Shown: one piece after another, positions 10,190-55,094 of the stretch
Position numbering within the stretch: position 1 is the first letter of the stretch
Layout: each line of letters opens with the position of its first letter
Made by a program: the position numbers and the translations under genes
Origin: a virus
Virus record (IMG/VR): IMGVR_UViG_3300036770_008728
Coordinates: 1 to 64,000 of that record
Length of the DNA stretch: 64,000 nt
Strand: one strand, 5' to 3'
The notes under the pieces: generated by a model
Database searches by the model: none
Told to the model about the DNA's origin: nothing
The model's input: only the letters and a program-made list of their open reading frames with translations

Positions 10190-10217
10190 TGTTTGTTAAT
10201 CCCTAATTTGTGCTCTA

Positions 10218-11780: not shown

Positions 11781-12271
11781 CAGAGCCTCACCAATCCAAA
11801 TTCTGGTTGAATAAACCGGCGACCCGGAAGTTTAAAGCTGTTGCCGTCAGACAGCGTACTGAGCTGCAGGCTGATAGCGATAGCATTCAGTTCTTCAACC
11901 TGAGATACATACCACACAGACATGGATGATTGTCCACTGGCCAAATCATCCGGATGCACCTCATACTTGGTGATACGGGCACCATCCATCCAACCTTCAG
12001 AGATGTAGTAGCTGAACAGGCTTTCCGGGTTGGCCAGAACTAAGCGTGGTCTGGACTGTTCGCCTCCGGCACGTTCACCCTCACCGGTCAGGCTAAAGGG
12101 AGCCAATGCCCATGTCTGGCTCTGCCAGTTCACAGTCTTTTCAGCGCAATAACGTAAAGTGACCACCGAAGCATCCGGGGCAGTAATTTGAATTTTCAGG
12201 AGTGTCAGAGGTTCGACCTGAGAGAGGGCGGCAGCATTGGCACGATAGATCTGTGGTATTTGCTGGTTCAT
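11780..12271 (-). CDS. Minor tail protein L-like
   Basis: Start moved to ATG 12271 by conserved RBS motif; VNWQSQTW...PF...G......RP.L..AN; between M and K. Confidence 0.75.
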   Translation of the reverse strand: MNQQIPQIYRANAAALSQVEPLTLLKIQITAPDASVVTLRYCAEKTVNWQSQTWALAPFSLTGEGERAGGEQSRPRLVLANPESLFSYYISEGWMDGARITKYEVHPDDLASGQSSMSVWYVSQVEELNAIAISLQLSTLSDGNSFKLPGRRFIQPEFGLVRL

Positions 12272-12307
12272 GTCTGTTAATCCCGAGTTTTTTCTGCATG
12301 ATAGCTG

Positions 12308-12339
12308 AAAAAACAAAACCCAGCCACAAGGACTGGGTT
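12308..12339 (-). terminator. Intrinsic terminator of the sRNA
   Basis: AACCCAGTC CTTGT GGCTGGGTT then TTGTTTTTT. Confidence 0.85.
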
Positions 12340-12383
12340 AACCATTAGGATTAACAAACATTGACACGAGGCCACTGCTTGCT
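12308..12383 (-). ncRNA. Predicted ~76-nt antisense sRNA complementary to the conserved RBS motif
   Basis: Promoter, 5' hairpin with G-U pairs valid only on this strand, 22-nt AUGUUUGUUAAUCCUAAUGGUU, intrinsic terminator; intergenic. Confidence 0.75.
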
Positions 12384-12390
12384 AATCCAA

Positions 12391-12419
12391 ATATTATTGG
12401 ACAACTGCGGACAAGTCAA
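12391..12419 (-). promoter_or_regulatory. Sigma70-like promoter of the sRNA
   Basis: TTGACT (12419-12414), 17 bp, TAATAT (12396-12391). Confidence 0.7.
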
Positions 12420-12448
12420 GACAACCGCAGACAAATGTTACAAATTGT
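12399..12448. repeat. Five phased (G)ACAA direct repeats over the sRNA promoter
   Basis: ggacaactgc/ggacaagtca/agacaaccgc/agacaaatgt/tacaaattgt, 10-bp period. Confidence 0.7.
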
Positions 12449-18839: not shown

Positions 18840-18857
18840 GTTTGTTAATCCTTATTT

Positions 18858-19528: not shown

Positions 19529-19579
19529 GTCTGTTAATCCTATAGTTGTCGTCATAATAGTAAACCACAGGACCAGAAC

Positions 19580-19606
19580 AAAAAAGCCCCGAGCAATCGG
19601 GGCTTT
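19580..19606 (-). terminator. Intrinsic terminator after tail tube gene
   Basis: AAAGCCCCGA TTGC TCGGGGCTTT TTT. Confidence 0.9.
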
Positions 19607-19622
19607 AATCACCAGGGAGCGG

Positions 19623-20423: not shown

Positions 20424-20477
20424 GTTTGTTAATCCTTCAATTGTGATAAAATCAGCTATAAACGGAACAATATAATC

Positions 20478-21283: not shown

Positions 21284-21292
21284 AGGGACCTC

Positions 21293-39246: not shown

Positions 39247-39513
39247 TTAAACCGGTGCTGGTGGTTCTTCAGGTGGCCACGGTGGTAAATCGCCACCACC
39301 GCTCATTGGTGTAGGCGTTGGGCTCGGTTCTGGTTCAGGTGTTTTTTCCGCCGGGGTCTCAGCGGCGAGTAAAGCCTGGCCTTCAGAAGACAACGTGACC
39401 TTATCGCTTACCGATTGCTCGATCCCAGAAGCGACTGGGTTTGCTGTCACCACGGGGCTCTGGCTCGGTAATACCGTCATTTCCTTGTTCTGGTAACGGG
39501 TGTTGATATCCAT
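39247..39513 (-). CDS. Small disordered Pro-rich protein
   Basis: AAGGAG SD; DKVTLSSEGQALL and GGGDLPPWPP motifs. Confidence 0.7.
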   Translation of the reverse strand: MDINTRYQNKEMTVLPSQSPVVTANPVASGIEQSVSDKVTLSSEGQALLAAETPAEKTPEPEPSPTPTPMSGGGDLPPWPPEEPPAPV

Positions 39514-39799
39514 CTGTTTCTCCTTTGAGGGATTTTAACCAGTGGTGAGGTAGGATTTTTGCTAACCACTGCGGTAGTACGGGATTCTGTTCAATGTTGT
39601 CTTCAGAAAATAAATCCAAGACCACTAACGGATCTGGTTCCGTCAACCAAACCCATTTTCGAACAATATCAAAGCTCGTGTTGATATTGGCCTCTATGTT
39701 GTAAACGGTTTGTCTTGAGCATTTTAGTTTCTCAGCCATTTCTGCAACAGACCAATTTTTGGCCTCTCGCATTGATTTTAAGCGTTCACCTGTATCCAC
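39401..39799 (-). CDS. XRE-family HTH regulator (candidate repressor)
   Basis: GERLKSMRE...WS..EMAEKL..SRQTVYNIE; divergent from early operon. Confidence 0.85.
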   Translation of the reverse strand: MDTGERLKSMREAKNWSVAEMAEKLKCSRQTVYNIEANINTSFDIVRKWVWLTEPDPLVVLDLFSEDNIEQNPVLPQWLAKILPHHWLKSLKGETDGYQHPLPEQGNDGITEPEPRGDSKPSRFWDRAIGKR

Positions 39800-39975: not shown

Positions 39976-40193
39976 GTTATTTGTACTATTTAGCCATTAG
40001 GATTTAAAACAAAATTAAGAGCGCCAAAGGGCGAACTTTTAGTGTCAGAGGGATTTGCACGGATCGCCACTGACCATTAGGATTAACAAACATCTGTTTG
40101 TCATGGGGCTGTACATCGGCCCCTATAACTTGCTCTGTAAACCGGAGCCATTTGCTTCTAAAACGAAGTAACGAACCATTAGGATTAACAATT

Positions 40194-40520
40194 ATGCTGC
40201 ACTTCTACAGTCAAGCTGATCATCAGCTGTACCTCCAAGCTATATCCCAGCCAGTCACCGGCAAAGCACTACAGGAAATGGTTAACCGCAAAATTAGCGG
40301 CGATGAGCCACGCTCGTTATTCCTGGCGCCGGGTAATTCCAGTACAGACAAAGACGCGAATGGTGTCTCTACGTATTTCGACTGGATGTGGTTCAAAACT
40401 CCCTACAACGAAGAGGGCCAGCCAATTCCTGTTGTTATTGGCCAGACAGATTTAAAGCCATACCGGATTATGAACGGCGGTTTTCTGCTGAGTAACGGTC
40501 AGTGGTCTTCACACTCGTAA
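40194..40520 (+). CDS. Hypothetical protein
   Basis: Start ATG 40194 by conserved RBS motif. Confidence 0.75.
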   Translation: MLHFYSQADHQLYLQAISQPVTGKALQEMVNRKISGDEPRSLFLAPGNSSTDKDANGVSTYFDWMWFKTPYNEEGQPIPVVIGQTDLKPYRIMNGGFLLSNGQWSSHS

Positions 40521-40554: not shown

Positions 40555-40577
40555 GACTAACCATTAGGATTAACATC

Positions 40578-41087
40578 ATGTTTCACATTTCAAAGCACAT
40601 CTTCAAGCATCTGGAGTTCTTTGCTCTGGGCGCTCCGGAACCAGAATACGTCTTACCAAACCTTGAGCTGGATGCGGTGGCCCAGTTCGTGACTGACTTT
40701 GATATAGAAATCAAAGAAGTGGCCATTCAAGGTGAATGTTGGGCTATGTGTGATGTCACACGAACTCCATCTCTTTGCAACGTGGTCAATATCCGAGTGG
40801 CTGAGCCAGTAGTAAAACCCCCACCGAAGCGTAATTTCTACAGCGATGCGATGTTTATCCAAGGGGGGGCCAGCAACCCTCGGGCAATCGTCAACACCAT
40901 TCAAGACTTCATGAAAGGCCCATTGAAGGATTTCGGTACTGATGCGCTGCGAAGTGATCCTGGCCTGCGTTTGATGGTGCATCAGCTGGCTTATCTGATG
41001 AATGTGTACGAAATGGACAGCCGCCCGTTGATTTACAGTGAGGTGTGCGAGGCCTGTGTGAAACTGGGTAATGGTGAACCGCAATGA
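40578..41087 (+). CDS. Hypothetical protein
   Basis: Conserved RBS motif. Confidence 0.75.
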   Translation: MFHISKHIFKHLEFFALGAPEPEYVLPNLELDAVAQFVTDFDIEIKEVAIQGECWAMCDVTRTPSLCNVVNIRVAEPVVKPPPKRNFYSDAMFIQGGASNPRAIVNTIQDFMKGPLKDFGTDALRSDPGLRLMVHQLAYLMNVYEMDSRPLIYSEVCEACVKLGNGEPQ

Positions 41088-41353
41088 GTGAAGTGATTTT
41101 GGATGGTGTGACCTTCGAGGTCAATATTGAGAGTGGTAACGCCGCACTGGTGCAGGACCCGAACGCAGAAGTCATCCGAATCCTGCAGAAGATCATTGCG
41201 GTGCTGGCAGACAATCCACCGGCCAGTGGTGTGGGTGGTGTCGTGAAGGACATCAACGGCAATACCGTGGGCGACTGGGGTCTGTACGTTGAGACCAAAC
41301 AGCAAGACGACGAAGGTGAGTTGGACTTGCCGTATCGTGACGTGAACGTTTAA
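41084..41353 (+). CDS. Hypothetical acidic protein
   Basis: ATGA coupling; D.NGNTVG.W motif. Confidence 0.75.
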   Translation: MSEVILDGVTFEVNIESGNAALVQDPNAEVIRILQKIIAVLADNPPASGVGGVVKDINGNTVGDWGLYVETKQQDDEGELDLPYRDVNV

Positions 41354-41373
41354 CAATCAGGGGATTAACAAAC

Positions 41374-41592
41374 ATGAAAAAAGGTTTTTTGGCCGCGCTG
41401 TTCGCCGCTACGGTGTCGTTCATAGTTCCGGATAATCGCCGGCAAAAGCGCAAACCTCAGCATTACCGGGCACTGCCGGAAACCAGTACCGGAACGCCAA
41501 TGCCGGTAGTAAAAACCCCACCGATGACTGAAGCGGATGCGAAGCGTGTGAAACAGCGGCACCGTCAGCGTAAAGCGAAGCGGGGTTACTGA
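41374..41592 (+). CDS. Hypothetical basic protein
   Basis: Conserved RBS motif. Confidence 0.7.
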   Translation: MKKGFLAALFAATVSFIVPDNRRQKRKPQHYRALPETSTGTPMPVVKTPPMTEADAKRVKQRHRQRKAKRGY

Positions 41593-41593
41593 G

Positions 41594-41923
41594 ATGCGGG
41601 GAGCAAATACAGCCGGCGGTTTTAATCACCGCCGCCATGATGTGGCCCGTCGTGAACTGCAGGAACTGAGCGCTGTCATCCAACTGAATTATGTCCCTTC
41701 ACGGAATTTGAATGGTGATGTGGAGCTGCGTGGTGGTGGTTTTATGGTCACGTTCCGTGAGGCTGAAACGGTGCAGGTTGTGTTTGTCTGGGCGGATTCC
41801 GTTGCCCAGGCCCGGCACAAAGCCGCGAAGTACTGCACGTTGGTCAAAGTTGAAGAAGTCGTAGCTCGGCCAACGGGTTTGACCTCTGCCAACCGTGCTG
41901 TGGGTCTTATCCAAAACAATTAG
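41594..41923 (+). CDS. Hypothetical protein
   Basis: Tight packing. Confidence 0.6.
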   Translation: MRGANTAGGFNHRRHDVARRELQELSAVIQLNYVPSRNLNGDVELRGGGFMVTFREAETVQVVFVWADSVAQARHKAAKYCTLVKVEEVVARPTGLTSANRAVGLIQNN

Positions 41924-41967
41924 TCCTGTACATCGGGACTGTCACTAACCATTAGGATTAACAAATT

Positions 41968-42600
41968 ATGCCGTGGCAAACTTTCAAACACATCAAAGAC
42001 GTGCGTAAAAGCCGTTTCTCTAAAGTCATTCGTTCAGCCATTACCCTCAACGAAGCTACGCAGCTTCAGGTGGTCTTCGATATCCAGATAGCGCAGCGCC
42101 GAAATACTTTTGAATACCACGGGGACCATCAGGCCATTGCCCGTTGGCGCTGGATGAAGCGCAAGCTGAAAAAACTGGTTGCCTCCGGCGTCATCCCGCC
42201 GGAATACAACAAGCTTGGCTCTAAAGTGACCCGGGATTTCTATTCCCGAAATCGTTATTACTACGACAGTCGTCTGACCTCTGAAGACGGCTGGGAGCAA
42301 TACGACACGGACCAAGATGCGTGGTACTTCGGCGTGTGGGTGAATCTGCGTGAGCGGAAGACTTTCAGCTATGTCGAGGGCGATCTGATTCTGGTCGAGT
42401 CTCCAACGCAGGAAATCTTCATTGCTGAGCTGAAGCAAATGGCGGAGTTCTACGAACCGGCTCGGGCCTTCAGCACCATCGATGAGGATGGAACGGTGAC
42501 ACGTCACTACTGCTCACGTCCTGGCGATGACCTGATTGGTTTCTCCATTGAAGAATGGGTGGCCAAGCAGCAGGCCCAGAAGGAGGCGGTGAATGCCTAA
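41968..42600 (+). CDS. Hypothetical protein
   Basis: Conserved RBS motif; GW.QYDTDQDAWYFGVWVN. Confidence 0.8.
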   Translation: MPWQTFKHIKDVRKSRFSKVIRSAITLNEATQLQVVFDIQIAQRRNTFEYHGDHQAIARWRWMKRKLKKLVASGVIPPEYNKLGSKVTRDFYSRNRYYYDSRLTSEDGWEQYDTDQDAWYFGVWVNLRERKTFSYVEGDLILVESPTQEIFIAELKQMAEFYEPARAFSTIDEDGTVTRHYCSRPGDDLIGFSIEEWVAKQQAQKEAVNA

Positions 42601-42802
42601 GTACCATATCACCTCGCCCAAAAAGCCCGAAGGCGCTGTGTTTGATGAAAAGCAGTTCGCGGAATTTCTGGTCTGGCTTTTCAAATGCCAGAGCGAAGAA
42701 CAGACCAAGCAGCTGATGAAGTTCCGTCACGAACTGCACGAAAAGGGCAAACACAGCTTCCCTGAGCACGGTGTAGAAATCACTGTGATGGAGTCTGCGT
42801 GA
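42593..42802 (+). CDS. Hypothetical protein
   Basis: AGGAGG SD. Confidence 0.7.
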   Translation: MPKYHITSPKKPEGAVFDEKQFAEFLVWLFKCQSEEQTKQLMKFRHELHEKGKHSFPEHGVEITVMESA

Positions 42803-42912
42803 AACTAATGCTTATGCAGCTGTCAGCAATCCTGCTGGTAGTCAGCTGCCTAATTTTGATTGTCTGGGAAACCCTATGCTGGCTTGGCCGGCGAATTCGG
42901 AGATGGTTATGA
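42799..42912 (+). CDS. 37-aa membrane peptide (not in ORF track)
   Basis: GGAG SD, GTGA/ATGA overlaps, TM plus basic tail. Confidence 0.55.
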   Translation: MKLMLMQLSAILLVVSCLILIVWETLCWLGRRIRRWL

Positions 42913-43277
42913 CGGAAATAACAGAAGACCAACGTTTGGCTTTGTTGGAAAGCACGATGCGGGAATATTCGGACACCTTGGGTGACCACCACTGGCAGGC
43001 CGCTGAAGGATTAAAAAAGCTGCGTCAGTTCCTGAATACAGACGTGATGCAGAAGCCGGAAATAGGCGAAGTTCTGGAGCGAGCGCGGGATTTAATCGAA
43101 GCTGGCACCGATACGCTGGAAGACGAAATTGCCATGTTGTGGGATTTAGTCGGTGCTCTGTCAGGACATGTGAATCGTGCTGAGTTCGATGAGATCATGA
43201 TTAAGGGTCTACATCAAGCTCAGGAAAATATGCAGTACGCCCCCCAAGACGAAGAGAACGGTGACTGGAATGTGTGA
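42909..43277 (+). CDS. Hypothetical acidic protein
   Basis: GGAG SD before MTEITED. Confidence 0.7.
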   Translation: MTEITEDQRLALLESTMREYSDTLGDHHWQAAEGLKKLRQFLNTDVMQKPEIGEVLERARDLIEAGTDTLEDEIAMLWDLVGALSGHVNRAEFDEIMIKGLHQAQENMQYAPQDEENGDWNV

Positions 43278-43530
43278 TTGCAAAACGAAATATGAAGAAG
43301 AAATCGTTAAAAGTGCCAAGGAGCAGTTGCCGGATTCAACTGACCACACGGCAGAGCTGCAGGGATATGTGCTGGGTATCCAAAAGGGTACGAATGACAT
43401 CGTACAGCGTCAGGCAATGCAGGTCGTGATTAAGTACACGGCACATCGCAAAGGTGTCTCGCGTTCGAAAAAGCTGGTTCAAAGTGTGATGGCCAGCTTC
43501 TGCATGTTCTGTGGCGCTTCGTTGAAATAA
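43270..43530 (+). CDS. Small Zn-finger-like protein
   Basis: MCDC ... FCMFCG. Confidence 0.75.
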   Translation: MCDCKTKYEEEIVKSAKEQLPDSTDHTAELQGYVLGIQKGTNDIVQRQAMQVVIKYTAHRKGVSRSKKLVQSVMASFCMFCGASLK

Positions 43531-43588
43531 ACCGGCCCCCGCCAAAGGGGTGGGGCCTTTAGTACCCTAACCATTAGGATTAACGAAT

Positions 43589-44392
43589 ATGAGTAATTAT
43601 TACGGTTATACCGAAAAGTACTTAGACCAGTGGCCGCGAATGGTGGAGCTTGAAACACTCTTTCCAGTCGCAGGGTATCGGGCTGGAATGTGGCATGGTG
43701 CGGTTATTTCGGAAGATTTGAAAACCGTAGTAACCCCGTCACACAACGTAAACATGAATGACCCTATTGGCCATTTATTAGGTATCTGGGATTCTGGGTA
43801 TGTCCCAGACCCGCTGTTTGAGAGCTCTGCAGGTGTTTTTGGTCGCTTTCTTCAATATAGTTATAACCGTACAAGTGATCCCTTCGCAGATGACCCGTTT
43901 TTGGATCAAATCAAGGGCGGTTTTACCTTCACAGGGAACCATCTTCAAATTTCTCACGGGTTCACTATCTACACTGCGAATTTAGACTTGGCTAAGTATC
44001 TGTTAACCCGGCTGTCTGAAATTTTTTCCAGGGATGTGTACTGTACAAGCGCTCTATTAGCCAGACATGGACGCACCCAGGCACACCATCTTTACTACTC
44101 AAAATTATATGGTTTCTCGACAGTACGTGGAGATCAGCACGAGCAGATCCAGCAGATTTTGTCGGGCCAAGTCCTGTGTAAGGCCTCAGACCATCATAAC
44201 CGACAGTCTTGGATTACGTACCTGGCCAGTGAAGCCACCTACTTGGGGTTTCGAAAAGATGTCGATTTGGGCGAATTTCTTCGCAAGAAATTATCTGACC
44301 CCGAGGAGTACTTTAACCAGAAGTTACCTTGGAATTATTCACCGAAGTATCCGGTGATTTCTAACTACTTACTCGACCAGTACGTAGGTTAA
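43589..44392 (+). CDS. Hypothetical protein
   Basis: Conserved RBS motif; bounded by two hairpin-motif cassettes. Confidence 0.8.
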   Translation: MSNYYGYTEKYLDQWPRMVELETLFPVAGYRAGMWHGAVISEDLKTVVTPSHNVNMNDPIGHLLGIWDSGYVPDPLFESSAGVFGRFLQYSYNRTSDPFADDPFLDQIKGGFTFTGNHLQISHGFTIYTANLDLAKYLLTRLSEIFSRDVYCTSALLARHGRTQAHHLYYSKLYGFSTVRGDQHEQIQQILSGQVLCKASDHHNRQSWITYLASEATYLGFRKDVDLGEFLRKKLSDPEEYFNQKLPWNYSPKYPVISNYLLDQYVG

Positions 44393-44447
44393 TTTTCCCC
44401 CGCCAAAGGGTGGGCTCTTTACTACCAACCATTAGGATTAACAAATC

Positions 44448-44927
44448 ATGTCAAAAACCAAAGGTATTGCACCGCTCAATCTGATTTACACGTTCATTTC
44501 CCACAATGAAGGCGAACGTCCTTACATCTGCACCCAGGGTCTGGAAGTTCAGAGCTTCAAGATGTCTCAAACTGAGACCACGTTCGGTTTCGGCAACGAT
44601 AGCGTGAAGATTGACGATGAACCGATGCAGGCCTACGCCGACAATCCGACGCCAGAAACATTGGAAGCGATGGCAGCAGCCATTCACCGGACGATGCACT
44701 TTGCCTTGTTGAATTCTGGCATGGCCGTGGCCGGGATGCGCTGGCCGGTGACTGAAGAAATCTACTGGTACTTCCTCGAAATCCTCCCGCCGATGGATTA
44801 CCACAAGTCTGAAGGCTTCCGTATTTGTGAAGCCAAAGGAACGGACCCCCTGGGGAACTACATCCGTTCGGCTTACTACTTCGAAAACGGCACCTACTGG
44901 CACGAATACGTGGCGGATAAGAAATGA
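44448..44927 (+). CDS. Hypothetical protein (DUF1419-like C-terminus)
   Basis: Conserved RBS motif; EE.YWYFLEILPP. Confidence 0.75.
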   Translation: MSKTKGIAPLNLIYTFISHNEGERPYICTQGLEVQSFKMSQTETTFGFGNDSVKIDDEPMQAYADNPTPETLEAMAAAIHRTMHFALLNSGMAVAGMRWPVTEEIYWYFLEILPPMDYHKSEGFRICEAKGTDPLGNYIRSAYYFENGTYWHEYVADKK

Positions 44928-45109
44928 GCCGGCGCCGGTTTGGTGGTGTTGCACAGCTGGTACTCCGGCTGTGTCTTTTCTGGTTTGGCGTTGTTCTGTT
45001 TGTGGCGGTGGTAGTCAGCCGCCTACCAGATCGAGTGCCCTGTAAAACCGTTGAGTGGACCGCGCAGCAAGATGCTGTGTGTATTACTCGTGATGTGGGA
45101 GGTGAATGA
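44924..45109 (+). CDS. Small membrane protein
   Basis: ATGA coupling, one TM. Confidence 0.6.
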   Translation: MSRRRFGGVAQLVLRLCLFWFGVVLFVAVVVSRLPDRVPCKTVEWTAQQDAVCITRDVGGE

Positions 45110-45327
45110 TGTCAAGAATGGATATGTGTCGCTGTAACACTTGCGGGTCGACGTTTAAGGTCTCTGCATGTATCCCTGACTTTGGTAATCACGATGGTTG
45201 GGAGTTACCACCCTCAACACAGCACTACTGCCCGAACTGTCCCGATGCCGAGGCTATTGACGATTATTTCTATTCTGAAAGCCCTACAAACAACGTACAG
45301 CAAGGGGAGGTTCCCGATGTCAGTTGA
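45106..45327 (+). CDS. Zn-ribbon protein
   Basis: CNTC ... CPNC, GGAGG SD. Confidence 0.7.
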   Translation: MMSRMDMCRCNTCGSTFKVSACIPDFGNHDGWELPPSTQHYCPNCPDAEAIDDYFYSESPTNNVQQGEVPDVS

Positions 45328-45664
45328 ATCCTACCCAACGAAAGCCCGGTTCTACCTGCTGACGATGGTACTGCAGATTGACTCTGGGCTGGCTTACGGC
45401 GGCTTTGAGTGGCACGAGAAATACGTGGCCAAGATACCGGCTGAGCTTTCGAACGAGGCGCTGCTGAATGCTCTTATGGCCGTGAACCGCAGCTTAAGCT
45501 CGGCGGTTTTGATTAAAACCGGCTCGGGCCACCGGTTAAAGCTGGGTAATTGCCTGATATTTGCGACCCGAACTGAACTCCGGCCGACGACGGCCAAAGA
45601 GCTCTTGGAGCAAAAAGTACTGCCATTACTAAATTTTCAACACAAGGTGGAGGTGGCCCTGTGA
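45317..45664 (+). CDS. Hypothetical protein
   Basis: GGAGG SD before MSVESYP. Confidence 0.7.
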   Translation: MSVESYPTKARFYLLTMVLQIDSGLAYGGFEWHEKYVAKIPAELSNEALLNALMAVNRSLSSAVLIKTGSGHRLKLGNCLIFATRTELRPTTAKELLEQKVLPLLNFQHKVEVAL

Positions 45665-46101
45665 GTGTTAAACAGATTCAAGCACGATTTCAAAGTATGC
45701 GCTTTGAAATCGACAATTTAACCAGCGCTAACCAGAACCTGAAGTCCCAGCTGGATGACGCCACAACGTTACTCAACACCATTCGTCACAGCCTGGGTGC
45801 TCAACCGGGTGAAACGGCGCTGGATACAGTGAATCGTGTTGTTGCTCTGTATCAGGATCGGGCTGAAAAAGCTGAAACAAATGTTCGACTTTTTAAATCA
45901 CGGAATACCGTGTTGGGGAATATCGTTTTAGAACGAACCGTCGACGCGGGGCGTATCAATGCTTTGGAGGCGGCGTTGTCTGTACTCCAGTTTGCAGCTT
46001 TCTTGGTGTGTGAAACCGATGAAAACCTTAAGAGGGTACTCATCGACACGCTGAAAATTCACAACGATGCGCCTGAAGAATTTAAGGACCTCAAACCATG
46101 A
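45661..46101 (+). CDS. Hypothetical coiled-coil protein
   Basis: GGAGG SD, GTGA overlap. Confidence 0.7.
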   Translation: MSVKQIQARFQSMRFEIDNLTSANQNLKSQLDDATTLLNTIRHSLGAQPGETALDTVNRVVALYQDRAEKAETNVRLFKSRNTVLGNIVLERTVDAGRINALEAALSVLQFAAFLVCETDENLKRVLIDTLKIHNDAPEEFKDLKP

Positions 46102-46508
46102 ACCTACGTGAACAATTAAGTTTTGGGCGTGGTGTCCGCTGCTTTATCAATCAGCCGAGTACACTACAGCCATTGCATCAATACAGTGGCCAGCGTTGTA
46201 TTGCCTTTCAGGGCGATCATTCACCGGAAAGCGGTATGGTCGATATCTACTTCACTCATGGTGAAGTGAGTTCCATAGTGGCGCCCATTTTGAGTCTGAG
46301 CCCACTGCATAGCCCAGGAGACAAAGAGCTGTATGTCGTTTGTGGTTATGACGGTGATTACGATAACCAGTGGACTCGGCTTATCGAGGCAGATAGTTAT
46401 GATGCTGCTGAGACTCGGCTGAGGGACACCCATTTTCCGGACGTGAACAAGGTCCACATACACTTCTCGGGACGACTGACCGATATGTTAAACAACGTTC
46501 TGAAATAA
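46098..46508 (+). CDS. Hypothetical two-domain protein
   Basis: INQPSTLQPLH motif; C-terminal domain shared with next gene. Confidence 0.75.
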   Translation: MNLREQLSFGRGVRCFINQPSTLQPLHQYSGQRCIAFQGDHSPESGMVDIYFTHGEVSSIVAPILSLSPLHSPGDKELYVVCGYDGDYDNQWTRLIEADSYDAAETRLRDTHFPDVNKVHIHFSGRLTDMLNNVLK

Positions 46509-46531
46509 ACCCTCAGAGGAAATAAATCCAA

Positions 46532-46927
46532 ATGACTGAACAAAAACACTCACCCATAGATATTGGTGTTCGACTGAATTTGACGAGCAACTTCAACAAG
46601 GAAGCTGGTTTGCTTGAACTCACGGTTGAATCAAAAATCAACTCTGTCACGGAGCAGCTGAGTCGTGATGTCTTCAACCTGCGGGAGCAAGCGCTTCGCA
46701 ATGCGTTGATTGAGCTGGGCTGGATCCCCCCAGAAACGGCTGAAAAGCTCTATCTGGTGTCCGGCTATGTTGGAGATCCAGAATCCACGCAAACCAGCCT
46801 GGTTGAGGCGCCGAACTCGAAGGTGGCCGAGGACATCTTTGTTCGTAAGCACTTTCCCGATGAGATGAACTGGGACATCCATTTTGTCGAGACATTGACC
46901 AACCTACTGGCCGATTCGCTGAAATAA
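46532..46927 (+). CDS. Hypothetical two-domain protein
   Basis: C-terminal domain paralogous to previous gene. Confidence 0.75.
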   Translation: MTEQKHSPIDIGVRLNLTSNFNKEAGLLELTVESKINSVTEQLSRDVFNLREQALRNALIELGWIPPETAEKLYLVSGYVGDPESTQTSLVEAPNSKVAEDIFVRKHFPDEMNWDIHFVETLTNLLADSLK

Positions 46928-46979
46928 CCACGGTCCTGCCAAAGGGTGGGACTTTCACAACCATTAGGATTAACAAACT

Positions 46980-47450
46980 ATGAAATCTCCGTATCAGGTG
47001 TACGTGTTCAACCTCAATGATTTTGCAACACTGTCGGCTGCAATGGCGGCCAGTTCAGAGATCCCCGAGAACGAGACCGGCCACTACCAGGCGCATTCGT
47101 TTGCAACAAAGGACGAGCGGTTATCGTTCATTGATGGGGTAAAAGCCGTCAATTCATTGCCCGGTCCTCACCATTTTGATGCAGTGCCTCTGGATTATTA
47201 CCTGCTGCAGGTTTACCGCGGTGCGGACTTTGACGAGAGCTATACAGCGGCTCGTGAAGACGGCGCTGTATATGACCTGGGTGTACGAGTCTCAATCGAA
47301 GAATTGAAGAATACGGATTTGCTGTCTTCATACCTGCGAATTGGGAACCGTACCGAGCGGTGTATCAATGATGGTCAGTCCAACATTCAGATGCTGCTGG
47401 TAAACCCTTTTGAGCCGTCAGAGTTTTATCGCTTAGAAGACCTTCTTTAA
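46980..47450 (+). CDS. Hypothetical protein
   Basis: Conserved RBS motif. Confidence 0.75.
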   Translation: MKSPYQVYVFNLNDFATLSAAMAASSEIPENETGHYQAHSFATKDERLSFIDGVKAVNSLPGPHHFDAVPLDYYLLQVYRGADFDESYTAAREDGAVYDLGVRVSIEELKNTDLLSSYLRIGNRTERCINDGQSNIQMLLVNPFEPSEFYRLEDLL

Positions 47451-47474
47451 TCAAACAATTCGGGATTAACAAAC

Positions 47475-48833
47475 ATGACAGAGCAGGTTAGCTATACCCA
47501 GCTGAAAGGGCACCGGGGCGGCGTTCGCCTTTGGATTGAAGGTAGTAAATTATCTACCGCCGGCTTCAAACGTGAAGCTCGTTACAACCGCGTCATCAAT
47601 GGTGATGAGATTCACCTGCAGCTGGCGACGAACGGGGAATTCAAAGTCTCTGGCCGCAGCCGCAACGGTGTTGACATTCCCATCATCGACATGTCGTTGG
47701 GCCGGCATAAAGATTTTCCGGAAGGCACTCGTATCCGTGCCGTGTTCTCCAGCGGCAACATCCATATCAGCATCCACCACGAAGACGCGGCACAGAAAGC
47801 CCGTGAAGAGCGCTTTGTGGCCAATGCCTCATCTGGCCAGTTGAGTGAAGGTTCGGCCTGTACCGGCGGTGGCATCAGCACTGCAGCGGTTCACATGGCG
47901 GTGGGTGATGCCGGATTTAATTCCCGGGTCGCCTGGGTGGTCGATACAGAGATTAAGTATCTGCAGTCCGCCTACGCTCAGAACTTCGCTATCACCGATG
48001 AAACGGTGTGTTTTGAGGCCCGACTGGAAGAGCTGGAGCCACACCTGCTGTCGCCGGTGGATATCTTCAGCTTCAGTCTGCCGTGTGCCGGCTTCAGCCG
48101 GTCCGGTACCAGTAAGCATGGCTTGAGTCCGGAAGAGCACGAATCGGGCGTCAGCTTGTTTGGGCTGATGTCGATGATCCGCGCTGCAAATCCGGCGGTC
48201 CTGTTCTCCGAAAACGTTCGGGAAGCACAGGGCAGTCCGATGTACATCCTGATGCAGCAGGAGCTGATCCGCCGTGGTTACCGGATTGTTGAAGCGGTTC
48301 TGGATAACAGCCACACCGGCACCTTTGAAAACCGGCAACGTTACTGGTTCATGGCTATTTCAAATGGTCTGCCTGCTGAGCTGCTGGCCGATGTCTTTAA
48401 GATGGAACCGGCCCGCAAGTTCCACAAATTGGCCGAGCTGCTGGACGCCGAGGTTCCGGACGATGTGTGGGCGGATAACCAGTACCTCAAAGACAAGCAG
48501 GTGCGGGACCAGGCCGCAGGCAAAGGATTCGCAACCAGACAGCTTCTGAGCGGTTCTGAGAGCAAGGTTGGTACCATCGGTCGCTTCTATCACAAACGTC
48601 GCAGCACAGAGCCATTCGTTGTGAATGCTGAGGGGAAAGAGCGCCTGCTGTCGGTCGCTGAACATGCCCGCTGCAAATCCATCCCTGAAGTGCTGGTGGC
48701 CAAATGCAATATGACCACCGGCCATGAAATCCTGGGCCAGTCGGTGGATTTCCAACAGGCCCTTCAACCCATGTACCGACTGATGGTGGCTGTCCGCCGC
48801 TGGCTCGGTATGGACTTAGCGGAGGCTGTATGA
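47475..48833 (+). CDS. DNA cytosine-C5 methyltransferase with N-terminal extension
   Basis: CTGGG (variant motif I), LPCAGFS (IV), ENV (VI), E.RQR (VIII), R.LSV.E.AR (IX), LGQSV (X). Confidence 0.9.
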   Translation: MTEQVSYTQLKGHRGGVRLWIEGSKLSTAGFKREARYNRVINGDEIHLQLATNGEFKVSGRSRNGVDIPIIDMSLGRHKDFPEGTRIRAVFSSGNIHISIHHEDAAQKAREERFVANASSGQLSEGSACTGGGISTAAVHMAVGDAGFNSRVAWVVDTEIKYLQSAYAQNFAITDETVCFEARLEELEPHLLSPVDIFSFSLPCAGFSRSGTSKHGLSPEEHESGVSLFGLMSMIRAANPAVLFSENVREAQGSPMYILMQQELIRRGYRIVEAVLDNSHTGTFENRQRYWFMAISNGLPAELLADVFKMEPARKFHKLAELLDAEVPDDVWADNQYLKDKQVRDQAAGKGFATRQLLSGSESKVGTIGRFYHKRRSTEPFVVNAEGKERLLSVAEHARCKSIPEVLVAKCNMTTGHEILGQSVDFQQALQPMYRLMVAVRRWLGMDLAEAV

Positions 48834-49285
48834 ACACCGGCAAGGTTTTTTACTCCAACTCACGGCGGTATTTGGAAGGCGTTGCCGCCGGCGTTGAGCA
48901 TGTTGGCGACTCCGTTCTGGAAATTGGCGATATCGAGAAGTCCGATAAACCGGGCTACCCGCTCAAACTCGTCATTGAAGATCGTGAAGCCACGGAGCTG
49001 CACGAAGATTTCACCCATTTCGATGCCCGCAAAGGTATCCCGCATATCGAAATCGACAAGCTGTGCTTTGACGACCTAATGAAACTCGGGGAGGAAGGTT
49101 ACTACTTCCCGAAAATTCAAAGTGCCCCAATGCACGAAAGCATGATTATCGACATGCAACTGCTGACACTCAACTGTACCGACGTTGACCGTGAATCGGT
49201 GATTGATTTGCTGGTGCAGTTCACCGACATCCCCCGTAATACGTTGCGCCGGGTGGCCATGATTTACGTGAAGTGGGAGGTGTGA
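48830..49285 (+). CDS. Hypothetical protein
   Basis: GGAGG SD, ATGA overlap. Confidence 0.7.
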   Translation: MNTGKVFYSNSRRYLEGVAAGVEHVGDSVLEIGDIEKSDKPGYPLKLVIEDREATELHEDFTHFDARKGIPHIEIDKLCFDDLMKLGEEGYYFPKIQSAPMHESMIIDMQLLTLNCTDVDRESVIDLLVQFTDIPRNTLRRVAMIYVKWEV

Positions 49286-49286
49286 C

Positions 49287-49514
49287 GTGAACAATCCAAT
49301 TCCACCACACCTCCAGTTTAAAAAGGGCGACAAGCTGGTGTGTGTGAGTACCGTTCTGGGCTCGAATTTGGTTATTGGCCAGGTCTATGAAGCCACTGAG
49401 GACACAGAACCCGGCAATCACCATACACCAGATCCGTTTGTCTGGATTAAAGGTCGTAACGGGAATTCGGTCGGTTGTTACGCTTGGCGATTCGTAAAAG
49501 CGGAGGCCGCATGA
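49287..49514 (+). CDS. Small SH3-like hypothetical protein
   Basis: FKKGDK.VCV...L..G..Y ... WRF. Confidence 0.7.
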   Translation: MNNPIPPHLQFKKGDKLVCVSTVLGSNLVIGQVYEATEDTEPGNHHTPDPFVWIKGRNGNSVGCYAWRFVKAEAA

Positions 49515-49717
49515 CCTGTGAGACCCCGAAGCCCATACGGATTGAGTGTTCTATCTACGGTTATTACTACCCGGACCGAACAACGTTCAGTTGTACTCAC
49601 GGCGGTTGGGAAAGCCAAATCGTGCTGATAGACGACTCCACTTGCCGGGTTCGAGCGCTTGAACGTGTCTCGACCTATGAATTTCTTGAAAAACTTCCTG
49701 AAGAATACGGAGGCTAA
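49511..49717 (+). CDS. Hypothetical protein
   Basis: GGAGG SD before MTCETP. Confidence 0.65.
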   Translation: MTCETPKPIRIECSIYGYYYPDRTTFSCTHGGWESQIVLIDDSTCRVRALERVSTYEFLEKLPEEYGG

Positions 49718-49719
49718 TT

Positions 49720-49920
49720 GTGACCGTCGATGAAATCAAAACGGCTGTTGAAGCCGGCCAGAAAGTTTTCTGGTGCAATCCTGGCTATCAAGTGATTAAG
49801 GACTCGATTGGCCAGTACCTGATTAAATTCATCCCCAACGGCCACTGTATTGGCCTGACCGGGCAGGACGGTGTGACTTTAAACGGCGAACCCGACGAAT
49901 TTTTTGTAGACAACAACTAA
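49720..49920 (+). CDS. Hypothetical protein
   Basis: GGAGG SD; EIK.AV.AG..V.W....Y.V. Confidence 0.75.
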   Translation: MTVDEIKTAVEAGQKVFWCNPGYQVIKDSIGQYLIKFIPNGHCIGLTGQDGVTLNGEPDEFFVDNN

Positions 49921-49948
49921 CCCGCAACAACCAGAAGGATTAACAAAC

Positions 49949-51067
49949 ATGACGGTACTTTATACCGAAAAACTGTATATCAACCACTCCAGCGGCCAAG
50001 CCGGCAGCTGGGAAATCGAAGTGACTGACGCCGGCGCTGACGGTGCTCGAATTGTAACCACGGCCTGTAAAGTAATTGGCGGCAAACCGGTGGAACATAT
50101 TGAGTTCGTGAAGGTCGGCAAGAACGTCGGCCGTGCCAACGAAACTACTCCGCTGCAGCAGGCTATCTCTGAGGCCCAGTCCAAGGCTCAGAAGAAAATG
50201 GACAAGGGTTACACCCGTGAGATCCCAGAAGCCGGCCAGAAAGCGGTGAACAGCCTGGGCCTGACTAAGCCGATGCTGGCGCAGGAATTCACGGGCGTTT
50301 CAAAATGGCCTGTATTTATTCAGCCAAAGCTCGACGGCAATCGCTGTCTGGCTGCTCGTGTTGACGGCAAAGTGAAGCTGTGGAGCCGGGGCGGGAAGGA
50401 AATTAACCTCCCGCATATCATTGAAATACTGGAAGCCAAACTGCCTGAAGGTCTTACTTTGGATGGTGAGCTGTACCTGCATGGTATTGCGTTACAAACC
50501 ATTACCAGCTGGATTAAGAAGCTGCAGCCGGAGTCAGCCAACATCCAGTATCACATTTACGACGTGGTTTCGCCTCAGTGCTACTCAGAACGTGCCGAGG
50601 TATTCAACAACCTGTTCGGTGGCCAGTGCGGCTTGGTCCGGGTGGTTGAGACTTATGCTTCACAGAACGAAGAAGCTATGAACAATCAGCACTCTTCATT
50701 TGTTGCCGCCGGTTATGAAGGCACCATGGTCCGTATGCCCGGTGTGGGCTACGAAGATGGCAAACGCTCCAAGTCCCTGCAAAAACTGAAAGATTTTCAG
50801 GATGGCGAATTTGAAATTGTTGGTATTGAGCGTGGTGTACCTCGGATTGTAAACGGCGGGCAACTGGAAGTTCCGCTTTATGTCTGTAAGGCGCCGAACG
50901 GCAAGACTTTCAATGTTACGGCCCCCGGTGATATGTACCAGAAACATGCTGCATGGGTAAATTCAGAAAATGCCCTGGGTAAGCAACTCACCGTGAAGTT
51001 CTTCAACTGGACACCGGACGGCCTGCCGTTCCTGCCGGTTGCTCTGCGTCTTCGTGACGATCTGTAA
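49949..51067 (+). CDS. ATP-dependent DNA ligase
   Basis: PMLA, QPKLDGNRC, LDGELY, YD, EG.M.R, KLK, C-terminal OB domain. Confidence 0.95.
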   Translation: MTVLYTEKLYINHSSGQAGSWEIEVTDAGADGARIVTTACKVIGGKPVEHIEFVKVGKNVGRANETTPLQQAISEAQSKAQKKMDKGYTREIPEAGQKAVNSLGLTKPMLAQEFTGVSKWPVFIQPKLDGNRCLAARVDGKVKLWSRGGKEINLPHIIEILEAKLPEGLTLDGELYLHGIALQTITSWIKKLQPESANIQYHIYDVVSPQCYSERAEVFNNLFGGQCGLVRVVETYASQNEEAMNNQHSSFVAAGYEGTMVRMPGVGYEDGKRSKSLQKLKDFQDGEFEIVGIERGVPRIVNGGQLEVPLYVCKAPNGKTFNVTAPGDMYQKHAAWVNSENALGKQLTVKFFNWTPDGLPFLPVALRLRDDL

Positions 51068-51098
51068 TTCAATTCAACAATCAGAAGGATTAACAGAC

Positions 51099-51353
51099 AT
51101 GCCTCAGTTATTTCAAATCAGCGTCGGCGGGATGGTGAAGCACATTGACCAAACCGACGAGCAAGCGTTCAACATCCTGAATCAGCAGCTGCGTGGCCCA
51201 GAGGCCCGTGCTCAGGCTCAGGAGCACGACTACAAACTGCCGGAAGAATACGAAGTGACCAAGCTGCTACGCCTCGCTCGGTCCGGGATTTCGGCCTCGA
51301 TGAACGGTGTGGCCATTGACCTTCAGAAACAACCTTCTGAGGTGGCCGCATGA
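51099..51353 (+). CDS. Hypothetical protein
   Basis: Start ATG 51099 by conserved RBS motif. Confidence 0.75.
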   Translation: MPQLFQISVGGMVKHIDQTDEQAFNILNQQLRGPEARAQAQEHDYKLPEEYEVTKLLRLARSGISASMNGVAIDLQKQPSEVAA

Positions 51354-51514
51354 GCAACGTAAATGCTTTCGTTGAAAGTGAAAAACTGTTTGAAGAATTT
51401 GGTGAAGAACATCCTGAATATGCCCGCTATGAATGGGAATCCGCCGTGGTCAATGGTGAAACCATTCTCGGTTACTGGATGTGGGTTCAGGACCAGATAG
51501 AACAGTCCAAGTAA
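51350..51514 (+). CDS. 54-aa acidic protein (not in ORF track)
   Basis: GAGG SD, ATGA overlap; EHP.Y...EW...V.NG.T.LGYW.WV. Confidence 0.7.
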   Translation: MSNVNAFVESEKLFEEFGEEHPEYARYEWESAVVNGETILGYWMWVQDQIEQSK

Positions 51515-51568
51515 AACAAAAAACGCCGGCGGCAACCGTCGCCGGCACAACAATTAGGATTAACGAAC

Positions 51569-52591
51569 ATGAACATGCGTTTTGAATTTCCGGCAGTCAA
51601 AGGTCGCCAGGGTGACCGTGATTTTTATATTGCCTCTATCCCATTTTCAGTACTGGGACGTCTTTTAGAAATTGATGCAGGTAACCCCCTGCAACGAAGC
51701 CAGCGCGTCGTTGATGCTGGCCGAGCAACGGCGATTGTCGATTACTTCTATCAAAACAACGACAACTACGTGCTTCCAAGTTTAACTGGCGTGGTTGAAG
51801 ACCCCAGTTTGGATTTCAAAGATGTCGGCGGTGGCGCCGGAGTTTTATCACTGAAGATGGATGCCATCATCAAGCTGTTTGATGGACAACACCGTGCGAC
51901 GGCTATTACTTCAATTGTGAAATCACATGCTTTCCGCAGTAAATGGGAAGACCAGACCATTGGTGTGCAGCTGTTTGTTGGCATGACCTTGCCACAACGT
52001 CAGCAGGCGTTCTCCGATATCAACAGCAAAGCCAAGGCCGTGAGTAAGTCCCTGAACCTGGCCTACGATGTCCGCGACAAAACAACGGCTGAGTTCCGGC
52101 AACATGCTGAATGGGTGTTCGGGATCCATGTGGACTACGAAAAGAACATAGCGACGAAGGGGCAACTGACGTGGTTCAGCTTCAAACATGTTGTGGATTG
52201 CTTCCGGCTGCTCTGTGGTATGAAAGCCAAAGACAAGTTTACCAAGGCGTCCAGTGAATTAATCATGCGTTGGTTTAACCATGTGGAATTGCGTCGGTCC
52301 TGTGACTGGAATCATGGCCATAAACCAGATCATATCAGCCGAACGGCACTGGGCTTGCTGGCACTGACTCGCGTCTTTAACTATGCCCATTCGGCTCAGA
52401 TCACTCCAGACGAGCTGGCTGTCAGCTTGGCTAAAATTGATTTTAACCGTGAGAACCCGCTGTGGTTAAACGTCTGTGTGGATGCGAAAGGCCGGATGAT
52501 TGCGAACCCGCAGTCAATTAAGGCCACGGCACGGAAGATACTGGAAGCCTGTGAATACACAGTCCCAGCGGATTGTCCGGCTCTTCAGTAA
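51569..52591 (+). CDS. DGQHR-domain / DndB-like protein
   Basis: FPAVKG.QG..FY, QR, DGQHR, Q.FSDIN..A..VS.SL...YD.RD. Confidence 0.9.
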   Translation: MNMRFEFPAVKGRQGDRDFYIASIPFSVLGRLLEIDAGNPLQRSQRVVDAGRATAIVDYFYQNNDNYVLPSLTGVVEDPSLDFKDVGGGAGVLSLKMDAIIKLFDGQHRATAITSIVKSHAFRSKWEDQTIGVQLFVGMTLPQRQQAFSDINSKAKAVSKSLNLAYDVRDKTTAEFRQHAEWVFGIHVDYEKNIATKGQLTWFSFKHVVDCFRLLCGMKAKDKFTKASSELIMRWFNHVELRRSCDWNHGHKPDHISRTALGLLALTRVFNYAHSAQITPDELAVSLAKIDFNRENPLWLNVCVDAKGRMIANPQSIKATARKILEACEYTVPADCPALQ

Positions 52592-52647
52592 TTTAAGAAC
52601 CCGCCGGCGGCAAAGGTCGCCGGCATCAACCATTAGGATTAACGATC

Positions 52648-53445: not shown

Positions 53446-53747
53446 TCCAGTTGCATAATCCAATCCCCAAGGAAGTGCTGATTAAGCTCGGCAAGACCCT
53501 GCAGGAGTCTCAAGGATATGAGCTGGGTTATTTCTATGCTGACAAAGAAGAGTTTGGCGAGGTGGGCCTCTGGTTGTGTTTGCCAGGTAATGGTCACCTC
53601 GTAGGCCGACATGTCACCGTTCACTTTGTGGAAACCCACGGAAACTCCAAGGAGTACTTGGAAAGTTTTCAGAAACTGGCTAAGGACCTCAACACGTTAC
53701 TAAGCCTCAAAGTTCCTGAGGCTTGTCGAATACACCTGAAGTGGTAA
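53442..53747 (+). CDS. Hypothetical protein
   Basis: ATGA overlap. Confidence 0.7.
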   Translation: MIQLHNPIPKEVLIKLGKTLQESQGYELGYFYADKEEFGEVGLWLCLPGNGHLVGRHVTVHFVETHGNSKEYLESFQKLAKDLNTLLSLKVPEACRIHLKW

Positions 53748-53797
53748 ATTCCCTGTCGGGGCAAAGGCCCCGACTCTCTAACCATTAGGATTAACAA

Positions 53798-55087: not shown

Positions 55088-55094
55088 GGTGAGT

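Follow-up and report, generated by a model that had tools for sequence, protein, structure and literature searches.

Does the single ribosome-binding site (RBS) copy that faces against transcription in the tail operon of a temperate siphovirus belong to an RNA gene, and, if so, which transcripts would that RNA read? The question is raised by IMG/VR virus record IMGVR_UViG_3300036770_008728, a single-contig record of 84,406 bp that is classed as a provirus and estimated complete, and of which the first 64 kb (positions 1 to 64,000) constitute the window analysed here. In the 176-nt gap between an M-position tail gene and the gene of minor tail protein L, a minus-strand unit lines up a promoter, a 5′ hairpin, an unpaired seed and an intrinsic terminator; the unit has the same sense as local transcription, against which the RBS copy contained in it faces. 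The original prediction took this unit for a master antisense small RNA (sRNA) pairing with the translation starts of about 29 phage genes. We consider it probable that the minus strand carries a functional RNA element here, and the best single mechanism, held at about even confidence, is that of a real sRNA gene whose product represses translation in trans, in a graded manner with early genes first and centred on the leader of the early operon.

Every sequence feature proposed for the unit was found at its position in the M-L gap, including the promoter TTGACT-17-TAATAT on the minus strand (coordinates of all features are collected in Table 1). Transcription is predicted to start near A12383, 7-8 nt past the −10 hexamer. 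Folding reproduced the claimed 5′ hairpin (AGCAAGCA.UGGC / GUCA.UGUUUGUU) and left the stretch AAUCCUAAUGGUU free between this hairpin and the terminator, as had been supposed. A minimum free energy (MFE) of −27.3 kcal/mol was determined for the 83-nt fold (z = −3.6), which none of 200 shuffles equalled, and the opposite (plus) strand of the unit reached −15.6 kcal/mol with loss of the 5′ hairpin. This strand preference had been ascribed to G-U pairs in both hairpins; the preference itself stood, the opposite strand being 5-12 kcal/mol worse in 4/4 lineages that carry the unit, but the G-U pairs were confined to the two stems of the 5′ hairpin, where they form only on the minus strand, and the terminator stem has none. 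The core of the RNA, AUGUUUGUUAAUCCUAAUGGUU, was indeed the exact reverse complement of the extended RBS consensus of the phage (22 nt, AACCATTAGGATTAACAAACAT). Positions 12340-12361, read on the plus strand, gave the sole zero-mismatch match to this consensus, and 15 matches were found with at most three mismatches versus none expected. Since the only perfect match is the inverted copy, and the best real site (40072) is one base off, the RNA mirrors the consensus itself. A cmscan of 11900-12900 against known RNA families (E up to 10) yielded six weak hits, all far below gathering scores and none of them c4.

The 8-mer GGATTAAC was the commonest of the whole genome, with 39 copies, and 31 of these lay 2-7 nt before a same-sense ATG of an open reading frame (ORF) of at least 67 aa. 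The figure of about 29 genes was borne out by 27 exact start-linked copies in the window plus two one-mismatch sites. The remaining eight copies comprised five ORF-less ones of intergenic type (40080, 60084, 61112, 70768 and 75312), two intragenic ones (21226 and 36708), which look like chance occurrences, and the focal inverted one. The focal copy had been described as the only one oriented against local transcription; it is the only intergenic copy of that kind, but a second opposite-sense 8-mer was found at 21226, within a gene and without the extension. Nine copies precede late or minus-strand genes, and the late-gene copies have the core only, in a looser CAAT-type upstream context. Extended-class sites lay at 1716 (minus strand) and in the early region at 40-54 kb; the exact 16-mer AACCATTAGGATTAAC had nine copies besides the focal one, and the copy at 40080 was one base off. 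In the seven early RBSs that are listed together in Table 1, GGATTAAC starts at 40567, 41955, 43577, 44435, 46967, 52636 and 53788, and the genes behind them are mostly without a Pfam family, one encoding a PIF1-like helicase.

Hairpins were found upstream of the extended copies at 43577, 44435, 46967, 51557, 52636, 53788, 56485 and 61112. Ahead of the early genes (window 40500-61200, plus strand) stood cassettes in which a GC-rich hairpin, its loop recurrently of CAAAGG/GCAA type, is separated by a few nucleotides from an extended RBS. Some cassette hairpins (e.g. before 51557 and 61112) have an upstream A-run, so that, read on the minus strand, an anti-RBS would precede a terminator. The GGATTAAC copies at 60084, 61112, 70768 and 75312 retained the usual AAAC spacer but lacked a start codon or had no more than a tiny ORF behind them, and may be decoys, remnants of former starts, or starts at a codon other than ATG.

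Scans with an alignment of L led to three loci, namely L001 on a contig of a metagenome-assembled genome (MAG), L002, and L003 on a 79.6-kb metagenome contig, and tblastn of phage records led to Pseudoalteromonas phage KB12-38 and to more distant JWF-, EAb13-, Lumi- and Seuss-type phages. Identity to the window's L was 100% in L002, 93% in L001, 55% in L003 and 48% in KB12-38; nine further L homologues (P0003-P0011), 53-65% identical to the window's L (alignment A1), stood outside the DNA comparison. The unit was present in the M-L gap of four lineages (window/L002, L001, L003 and KB12-38), always directly upstream of L, and each lineage has TTGAC(T/A), a spacer of 16-17 nt, TA(A/G/C)TAT, a 5′ hairpin, a free seed and a hairpin with U-run. 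The −10 hexamer was TAATAT in L001 and L003, TAGTAT in L002 and TACTAT in KB12-38. All four lineages folded alike (z from −2.9 to −5.6), a comparison that comprises only four distinct sequences and is statistically weak; as MAFFT of the five sRNAs misplaced L003, the hairpin pairs were compared by hand from the folds. Terminator stems differed in L003 and KB12-38, with hairpin and U-run kept. The terminator U-run can also pair with an A-run just before the L RBS (12289-12314, minus strand), and the U-run and downstream A-run were found in 4/4 lineages. Four DNA runs all carried the L002-type sequence, and among the differences listed none fell at 12102-12385, an observation given no weight.

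Pair-wise comparison with L001 delimited the constrained segment. Identity was 76% in the M gene, 61% in the stretch ahead of the −35, 6/6 in the −35 hexamer, 59% in the promoter spacer, 6/6 in the −10 hexamer, 64% in the 5′ hairpin, 50/50 in seed plus terminator (12306-12355), 21/22 from the terminator to the L RBS, 15/15 in the L RBS with its start, and 82% in the L gene, divergence resuming at the third codon of L; over 87 nt, identity reached 99% versus 76-82% in the flanking genes. In the less identical 5′ hairpin, UGGC/GUCA of the window was replaced by UGGU/ACCA, compensated on both sides, and two A/G swaps retained pairing with U. The segment identities together with the compensated hairpin indicate that the constraint on the non-coding unit exceeds that on the flanking genes and acts on the strand in RNA sense. 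A plus-strand gene was considered as well and rejected: the inverted RBS is followed by ATT/TTG, and the 99-aa ORF that opens with TTG, the only one called by program, overlaps M in antisense and is unconserved. When the frames were read by hand, the TTG frame stopped after seven codons in L001, KB12-38 had a 10-codon ATG ORF and L003 had no start; a 7-codon minus-strand ORF in the unit, likewise read by hand, was unconserved too.

If the RNA reads the RBS motif, core and motif should vary together among relatives, as the original prediction proposed to check, and the anti-RBS core was found to follow each phage's own RBS motif in three lineages. The window phage has the RBS word GGATTAAC and the inverted copy GUUAAUCC at 12348(+); L003 has GGACTAAC (9 copies in 20 kb) and the inverted GUUAGUCC at 9910(−); and KB12-38 has GGATTGAC (27 copies) and the inverted GUCAAUCC at 13854(+). 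The RBS word is uniform within each of the three phages and is inverted only once, in the M-L gap; in KB12-38 the words of the other two phages occurred just twice each, away from starts. Both core differences between the lineages are transitions that wobble pairing could bridge.

Relatives that retain the motif without an inverted copy, which had been named as grounds for refutation, were not encountered among the relatives reached. The four complete-genome relatives that lack the unit had no dominant RBS word upstream of their ORF starts; in three of them (Achromobacter phage 2-1, EAb13 and Seuss) M and L overlap, leaving no room for the unit, and in the fourth, Lumi, the M-L gap measures only 44 nt, its sequence unread. 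A search of IMG/VR with the N-terminus of J gave two distant contigs (31-32% identity) with overlapping M and L and no dominant 8-mer. Megablast and blastn against phages found no relatives, IMG/VR searches by L protein or L alignment returned none, and the MAG of L001 yielded no further phage contig, one extra hit lying in what appears from its sequence to be a host coding region. An IMG/VR scan for a promoter plus an anti-RBS gave 14 loci, which were judged chance, none having a following terminator or motif enrichment.

The predicted partners of the RNA were assessed by duplex scanning of 32-nt windows. At −20 kcal/mol or below, the own seed scored 164 windows in the window genome versus 6 and 20 for foreign seeds, and 98 in KB12-38 versus 7 and 6. 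The best predicted trans partner was an ORF-less RBS copy in the early-operon leader, and the top non-self site of KB12-38 was likewise an ORF-less RBS copy in its early leader (∼41490-41511, −33.7 kcal/mol); the duplexes comprise 22 bp with 1-2 G-U pairs in both complete genomes, though 7/22 positions differ between the phages. In cofolding, the window leader site ranked 1st of 38 by net gain (−27.0 kcal/mol), two KB12-38 leader sites ranked 1st and 2nd of 26 (−33.3 and −28.1 kcal/mol), and the 5th percentile of 150 random 75-mers was surpassed by 35/38 sites of the window phage and 25/26 of KB12-38. In both phages the leader folds leave the Shine-Dalgarno (SD) sequence and extension of the ORF-less site unpaired and place its 3′ part in a short hairpin, the sequence of which differs between the two; the first real early RBS, 50-100 nt past the site, also matches the sRNA. 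Window 39990-40196 holds three sRNA-complementary sites in 200 nt (39994, partial; 40072, ORF-less, 21/22; 40174, a real RBS), with several hairpins in between, one of them terminator-like (40132-40148), and the same layout was seen in KB12-38 at 41485-41570.

Since the exposed seed is anti-SD plus anti-extension, only extended-class sites offer a full toehold, and most late-gene RBSs were predicted to pair more weakly than extended-class and leader sites. The RNA also fits the consensus and the leader better than it fits the neighbouring L RBS, with 22 versus 15 bp in the window phage and, by hand alignment, 22 bp versus ∼9+3 bp in KB12-38, and this better fit is the chief reason to think that trans pairing is under selection. 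Base pairing in trans further predicts TTAATAATCGGACTAAC as the early-leader site of L003, matching its seed extension. Wobble-compatible substitutions made up 14/20 in the spacer; among core variants at starts they made up 7/8 in KB12-38, six being the same C-to-T change, and 2/5 in the window phage, where three of the five may be internal ATGs. These counts are suggestive only, as a purine or pyrimidine preference would yield the same pattern.

Outside the window, at genome 74346-74867 (L026:1315-1836), the phage also encodes a 173-aa protein with a ProQ/FinO domain; it matched PF04352 at 43.3 bits versus a cut-off of 27 and has no PDB relative by sequence. The orthologue of KB12-38, annotated as a hypothetical protein with a PFAM-ProQ note, reached 49.6 bits and is 44% identical. 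PF04352 was found in 2/2 complete sRNA-bearing genomes versus 0/4 complete-genome relatives without the unit. According to the accessible part of a family review, ProQ/FinO members use terminator hairpins to bind RNA, FinO assists the pairing of FinP with the traJ RBS, and phage-encoded homologues exist, for which that part describes no RNA partner (PMC9977716). By analogy, the phage protein probably helps the sRNA, to which it may bind.

In the mechanism that we favour, host RNA polymerase would start at the near-consensus sigma-70 promoter and stop ∼76 nt on at the intrinsic terminator, releasing an RNA that would consist of the 5′ hairpin, with its RBS-like arm over the anti-start/anti-spacer half, the free 13-nt seed and the terminator hairpin with its U tail. 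The seed would dock on mRNAs bearing the extended RBS AACCATTAGGATTAAC, and pairing would spread to the spacer and start codon as the 5′ hairpin opens, up to 22 bp, so that ribosome binding would be blocked. The ORF-less early-leader copy would be targeted first, then the early RBSs with full extension, and the core-only late RBSs more weakly. Such an RNA may form a layer of immunity or of timing, whereby early genes would be silenced, be it in the lysogen or during superinfection by a sibling, or else shut off late. The phage ProQ/FinO-domain protein would probably assist, as its family binds terminator hairpins and promotes antisense pairing, and, as a side effect alongside the trans role, the same segment would pair with the RBS of gene L in late read-through mRNA. 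Of the original claim that one trans RNA controls translation genome-wide, there remain a conserved strand-specific unit without a conserved ORF, the co-variation of its core, and unit-less relatives without a uniform motif; the predicted targeting looks graded, not uniform, and cis pairing with the L RBS, which had been left unweighed, was predicted in four lineages.

This cis pairing could be all that the unit does. It would then be a structured leader whose anti-RBS pairs with the L RBS and start ∼65-75 nt downstream in the late mRNA, holding down L and the coupled distal tail genes, with the RBS-like 5′ arm as a competing ‘on’ conformation and the short RNA as a by-product. The anti-RBS:L-RBS helix (12-15 bp) was present in the read-through MFE structures of 4/4 lineages (z = −4.2 to −4.7), the unit stands directly upstream of L in every lineage, and the 22 nt between terminator and L RBS are conserved; the read-through folds make it likely that L is affected in cis in late mRNA. 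A device acting in cis only, however, neither needs nor explains a conserved near-consensus promoter with an immediate strong terminator; the RNA matches the consensus and the early leader better than the L RBS, in which the window phage has a G where the RNA pairs by wobble; and the lineage-specific seed extension fits the distant early-leader sites, not the sequence upstream of L. As the sole function, cis control appears rather unlikely to us. A strong promoter and a strong terminator within ∼76 nt, in the sense of the downstream genes, also resemble the promoter-proximal terminator unit of lambda, pR′-tR′ with its 6S RNA, which is under antitermination control: a constitutive promoter would fire into the terminator, a phage factor would let polymerase read into L-K-I-J, and the short RNA would be functionless. 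The repeats around the −35 in the window phage and L002 would agree with this but are absent from L001, L003 and KB12-38, and the Q-type antiterminator families PF06530 and PF03589 had no match each in the genome, a weak negative, and other types were not searched. Antitermination, which leaves the anti-RBS, the motif co-variation and the compensated 5′ hairpin unexplained, is to our mind very improbable.

It is quite improbable, too, that the RNA is made but acts otherwise, by opening leader hairpins and thereby activating, by altering termination or processing of the leader, or by being titrated by ORF-less sponges. For such a role speak the leaders of both phages, where the 3′ half of the ORF-less site lies in a hairpin and further hairpins, including the terminator-like one, stand before the first real RBS, as well as the other ORF-less copies; pairing would nevertheless cover the SD and start codon of real RBSs, which blocks initiation in known systems, and leader folding demonstrated no sRNA-dependent alternative fold. 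That the unit is an inert relic, i.e. a hairpin-plus-RBS cassette inverted by shuffling, or a DNA-level protein-binding or recombination site kept by gene conversion, we find hardly probable at all. On the plus strand the focal copy does have the early-cassette layout of a hairpin with CAAAGG-like loop and then AACCATTAGGATTAAC, and T4-type phages offer a precedent in their PeSL-type cassette shuffling; against this, the unit is held at the same place in lineages with 48-55% L identity, its G-U pairs are strand-specific and its stems compensated, it is far better conserved than the flanking genes, and its plus-strand ORFs are unconserved.

Besides the L-RBS helix and the conserved 22 nt between the terminator and the L RBS, several results weigh against repression in trans. 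The promoter match by itself was not above chance, with 10 promoter-like sites versus 16.8 expected in shuffles, and in the cofold control random 75-mers sometimes reached −21.7 kcal/mol in the window phage or −26.1 kcal/mol in KB12-38. Extension substitutions outside the perfect class showed no wobble bias in the window phage (33/134). About 10 early RBSs of KB12-38 have a conserved 16-nt upstream block of the TAAACTAAAACTTGA type before GGATTGAC, which is not complementary to the sRNA; as most early RBSs of that phage carry this extension, its conservation has another cause there, and the KB12-38 regulon may be little more than the leader, with few true targets. Furthermore, all sRNA-bearing phages form one clade of only four lineages, so that the co-occurrence with ProQ and a uniform motif counts as one event, 2-3 versus 4, and gene conversion, not selection for pairing, could keep the inverted copies alike.

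The surroundings of the unit and of its predicted targets agree with the organization of a temperate phage. The tail genes on the minus strand follow the order tape measure, M-position gene, L, K/I-like and a 2185-aa J-like protein. The neighbours had been named as tail genes M and L; L was supported by PF05100 and phrog_18, whereas M holds by position only, its family phrog_34212 being of unknown function. An HTH_3 gene diverges from the plus-strand early operon and its leader and marks the immunity region. The 9-mer TTGTCCAAT occurred twice in the genome, once in the near-palindrome CTTGTCCAATTAAATTGACAAG beside this gene (window 39911-39933) and once at 12396-12404, over the spacer and −10 of the sRNA promoter; an operator shared by the two was considered and set aside as probably chance, because it is absent from L001 and L002. 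A DndB-like gene was seen in both phages (window 51569-52591, PF14072; KB12-38 53735-55293), and PAPS-reductase-like genes and methylases near that of KB12-38 suggest a DNA modification module.

Table 1. Features of the candidate sRNA unit, its predicted partners and neighbouring genes (window coordinates)
Feature	Coordinates	Strand	Remarks
−35 hexamer TTGACT	12414..12419	−	TTGAC invariant in 5/5 sequences
−10 hexamer TAATAT	12391..12396	−	17 nt past −35
Two copies of TGTC(C/T)GC(A/G)GTTGTC around −35	12400..12433	−	possible regulator site; only two close copies in window; kept in L002
Predicted ∼76-nt sRNA	12308..12383	−	both ends inferred
5′ hairpin	12353..12383	−	RBS-like degenerate arm pairs with anti-spacer/anti-start half of anti-RBS
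Single-stranded seed AAUCCUAAUGGUU	12340..12352	−	anti-SD plus anti-extension, 13 nt; unpaired in MFE and centroid
Anti-RBS core AUGUUUGUUAAUCCUAAUGGUU	12340..12361	−	exact reverse complement of 22-nt consensus
Intrinsic terminator, 9-bp hairpin then UUGUUUUUU	12308..12339 (hairpin 12339-12317)	−	among two best terminator-like sites in 3000-22000
L RBS and start codon GGATTAACAGACATG	12269..12283	−	predicted cis partner; 15-bp helix, MFE and centroid, z = −4.56
ORF-less RBS copy in early-operon leader	40072..40093	+	best predicted trans partner; duplex −33.3 kcal/mol; 22 pairs, one of them G-U
Partial ORF-less seed match CCATTAGGATT in early leader	39994..40004	+	predicted duplex −23.7 kcal/mol
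First early-gene RBS with full extension AACCATTAGGATTAACaattATG	40174..40196	+	
Seven further early RBSs with exact AACCATTAGGATTAAC	40559..53795	+	predicted duplexes −27 to −31 kcal/mol
One more exact AACCATTAGGATTAAC copy	1709-1724	−	
Integrase gene	1-1194		
HTH_3 (Cro/CI-type) regulator gene	39401..39799	−	PF01381, E 1.2e-7, 32.1 bits versus cut-off 23
Tape-measure gene	12840-18839	−	
M-position tail gene, 131 aa	12448..12843	−	phrog_34212, E 1.8e-28; directly after tape measure, ends just upstream of unit
Minor tail protein L gene, 163 aa	11780..12271	−	phrog_18; PF05100 seen on L homologues

Phages and plasmids are known to use antisense RNAs that block an RBS (c4, FinP), each known case being confined to one operon; the unit described here is a conserved candidate RNA gene that mirrors the motif of ∼30 starts, changes with this motif between phages and travels with a phage ProQ/FinO protein. 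If the pairing is true, it would provide a first candidate client for phage ProQ proteins and a simple testable model of RNA-coded immunity specificity; KB12-38 has been isolated and its host is in culture, so that routine experiments would suffice. The c4 RNA is processed from the leader of the operon that it represses. As described in the available part of the source, c4 of P1/P7 is a short structured RNA that pairs around an RBS in the early/immunity transcript, blocks translation and defines heteroimmunity (PMC12197685), which is matched by the predicted 22-bp pairing of the window RNA with an early-leader RBS copy in both complete genomes; c4, however, acts on one operon, while the window RNA matches ∼30 RBSs and has its own promoter and terminator in the tail operon, ∼28 kb from its best target. 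In FinP/FinO of F-like plasmids, a FinO-domain protein works with a stem-loop RNA that ends in a terminator and pairs with the RBS of an early-regulator mRNA, as far as the accessible part of the review goes (PMC9977716; see also PMC3105414). The window phage likewise encodes a FinO/ProQ-domain protein on the same element as its RNA, but FinP is cis-encoded opposite its single target traJ, whereas the window RNA is sense to the local tail genes, with its complementary sites elsewhere, and has many potential targets. With its own promoter far from the target, its trans-encoded nature and no Rfam match, the window RNA is a member of neither c4 nor FinP/FinO.

Other RNAs share single traits with the unit. 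Streptococcal csRNAs differ, on the available excerpts, in being host chromosomal, controlled by CiaRH and matched to the generic SD, not to a co-evolving element-specific motif (PMC3091779). STnc6030 of the Salmonella prophage BTP1 is, in the accessible part of its description, an ncRNA of the lysogen that excludes the superinfecting same phage by base pairing, with escape mutants in the paired region, and it is encoded among late/structural genes of a prophage, as is the window RNA (PMC7067206); it is a cis-antisense RNA of ∼500-786 nt acting at one locus, whereas the window RNA is ∼76 nt long, in tail-operon sense and complementary in trans. SviR of the Vibrio cholerae PLE satellite is likewise a trans-acting sRNA of a mobile element that lowers translation of several phage targets, but it is satellite-encoded against another genome, and its abstract describes no genome-wide shared RBS motif (bioRxiv 10.1101/2022.04.08.487710). 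A literature search turned up neither an account of the unit nor one of any phage sRNA whose sequence matches an RBS motif used genome-wide.

The closest counterpart of the motif itself was found in the start-associated sequences (SAS) and their extended form (ESAS) of Cluster K mycobacteriophages. In the accessible sections of Pope et al. (2011, PMC3203893), SAS are asymmetric motifs 3-7 bp before starts, mostly ATG, which contain a short SD core plus bases unable to pair with 16S rRNA; about half of the sites have an upstream inverted repeat, nearly all face one way, a single inverted copy unlinked to a gene start exists in four K1 phages, and the reader, host or phage, RNA or protein, is left open by the authors. 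The window motif is similarly asymmetric and placed a few nucleotides before mostly ATG starts in gene orientation (31/39), hairpins before AACCATTAGGATTAAC resemble the upstream inverted repeats, and a single opposite-orientation copy is found in the window phage, KB12-38 and L003. In Anaya (JF704106), we counted 16 forward SAS and one inverted copy, which lies between gp96 and gp97 in a 385-nt gene-free gap (39682-40066) just after a terminator, and whose plus-strand RNA would present the anti-SAS CCUCCUAUCC in a predicted 10-nt hairpin loop. If the pairing is true, it would supply a mechanism for phage-wide start-associated motifs, the reader of which has been an open question since 2011 (PMC3203893). 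We advance, as a tentative idea that may well fail, that the RBS motif serves each phage as its own ‘translation barcode’, and that a master sRNA reads it together with a phage ProQ/FinO chaperone, forming an RNA-based immunity in which the early operon is silenced through decoy-like leader sites, ∼30 translation units of the resident phage or of a superinfecting sibling are damped, and diversification along wobble paths (GGATTAAC, GGACTAAC, GGATTGAC) sets heteroimmunity groups, and that the same logic applies to SAS/ESAS and the lone inverted SAS of Cluster K. The Cluster K motif nevertheless has a different sequence, GGGATAGGAGCCC, its hosts are actinobacterial, and SAS are found only in the non-structural half of the genome in the sections accessible, whereas the late genes of the window phage carry the core, so that the window motif is an analogue of SAS/ESAS, not a member.

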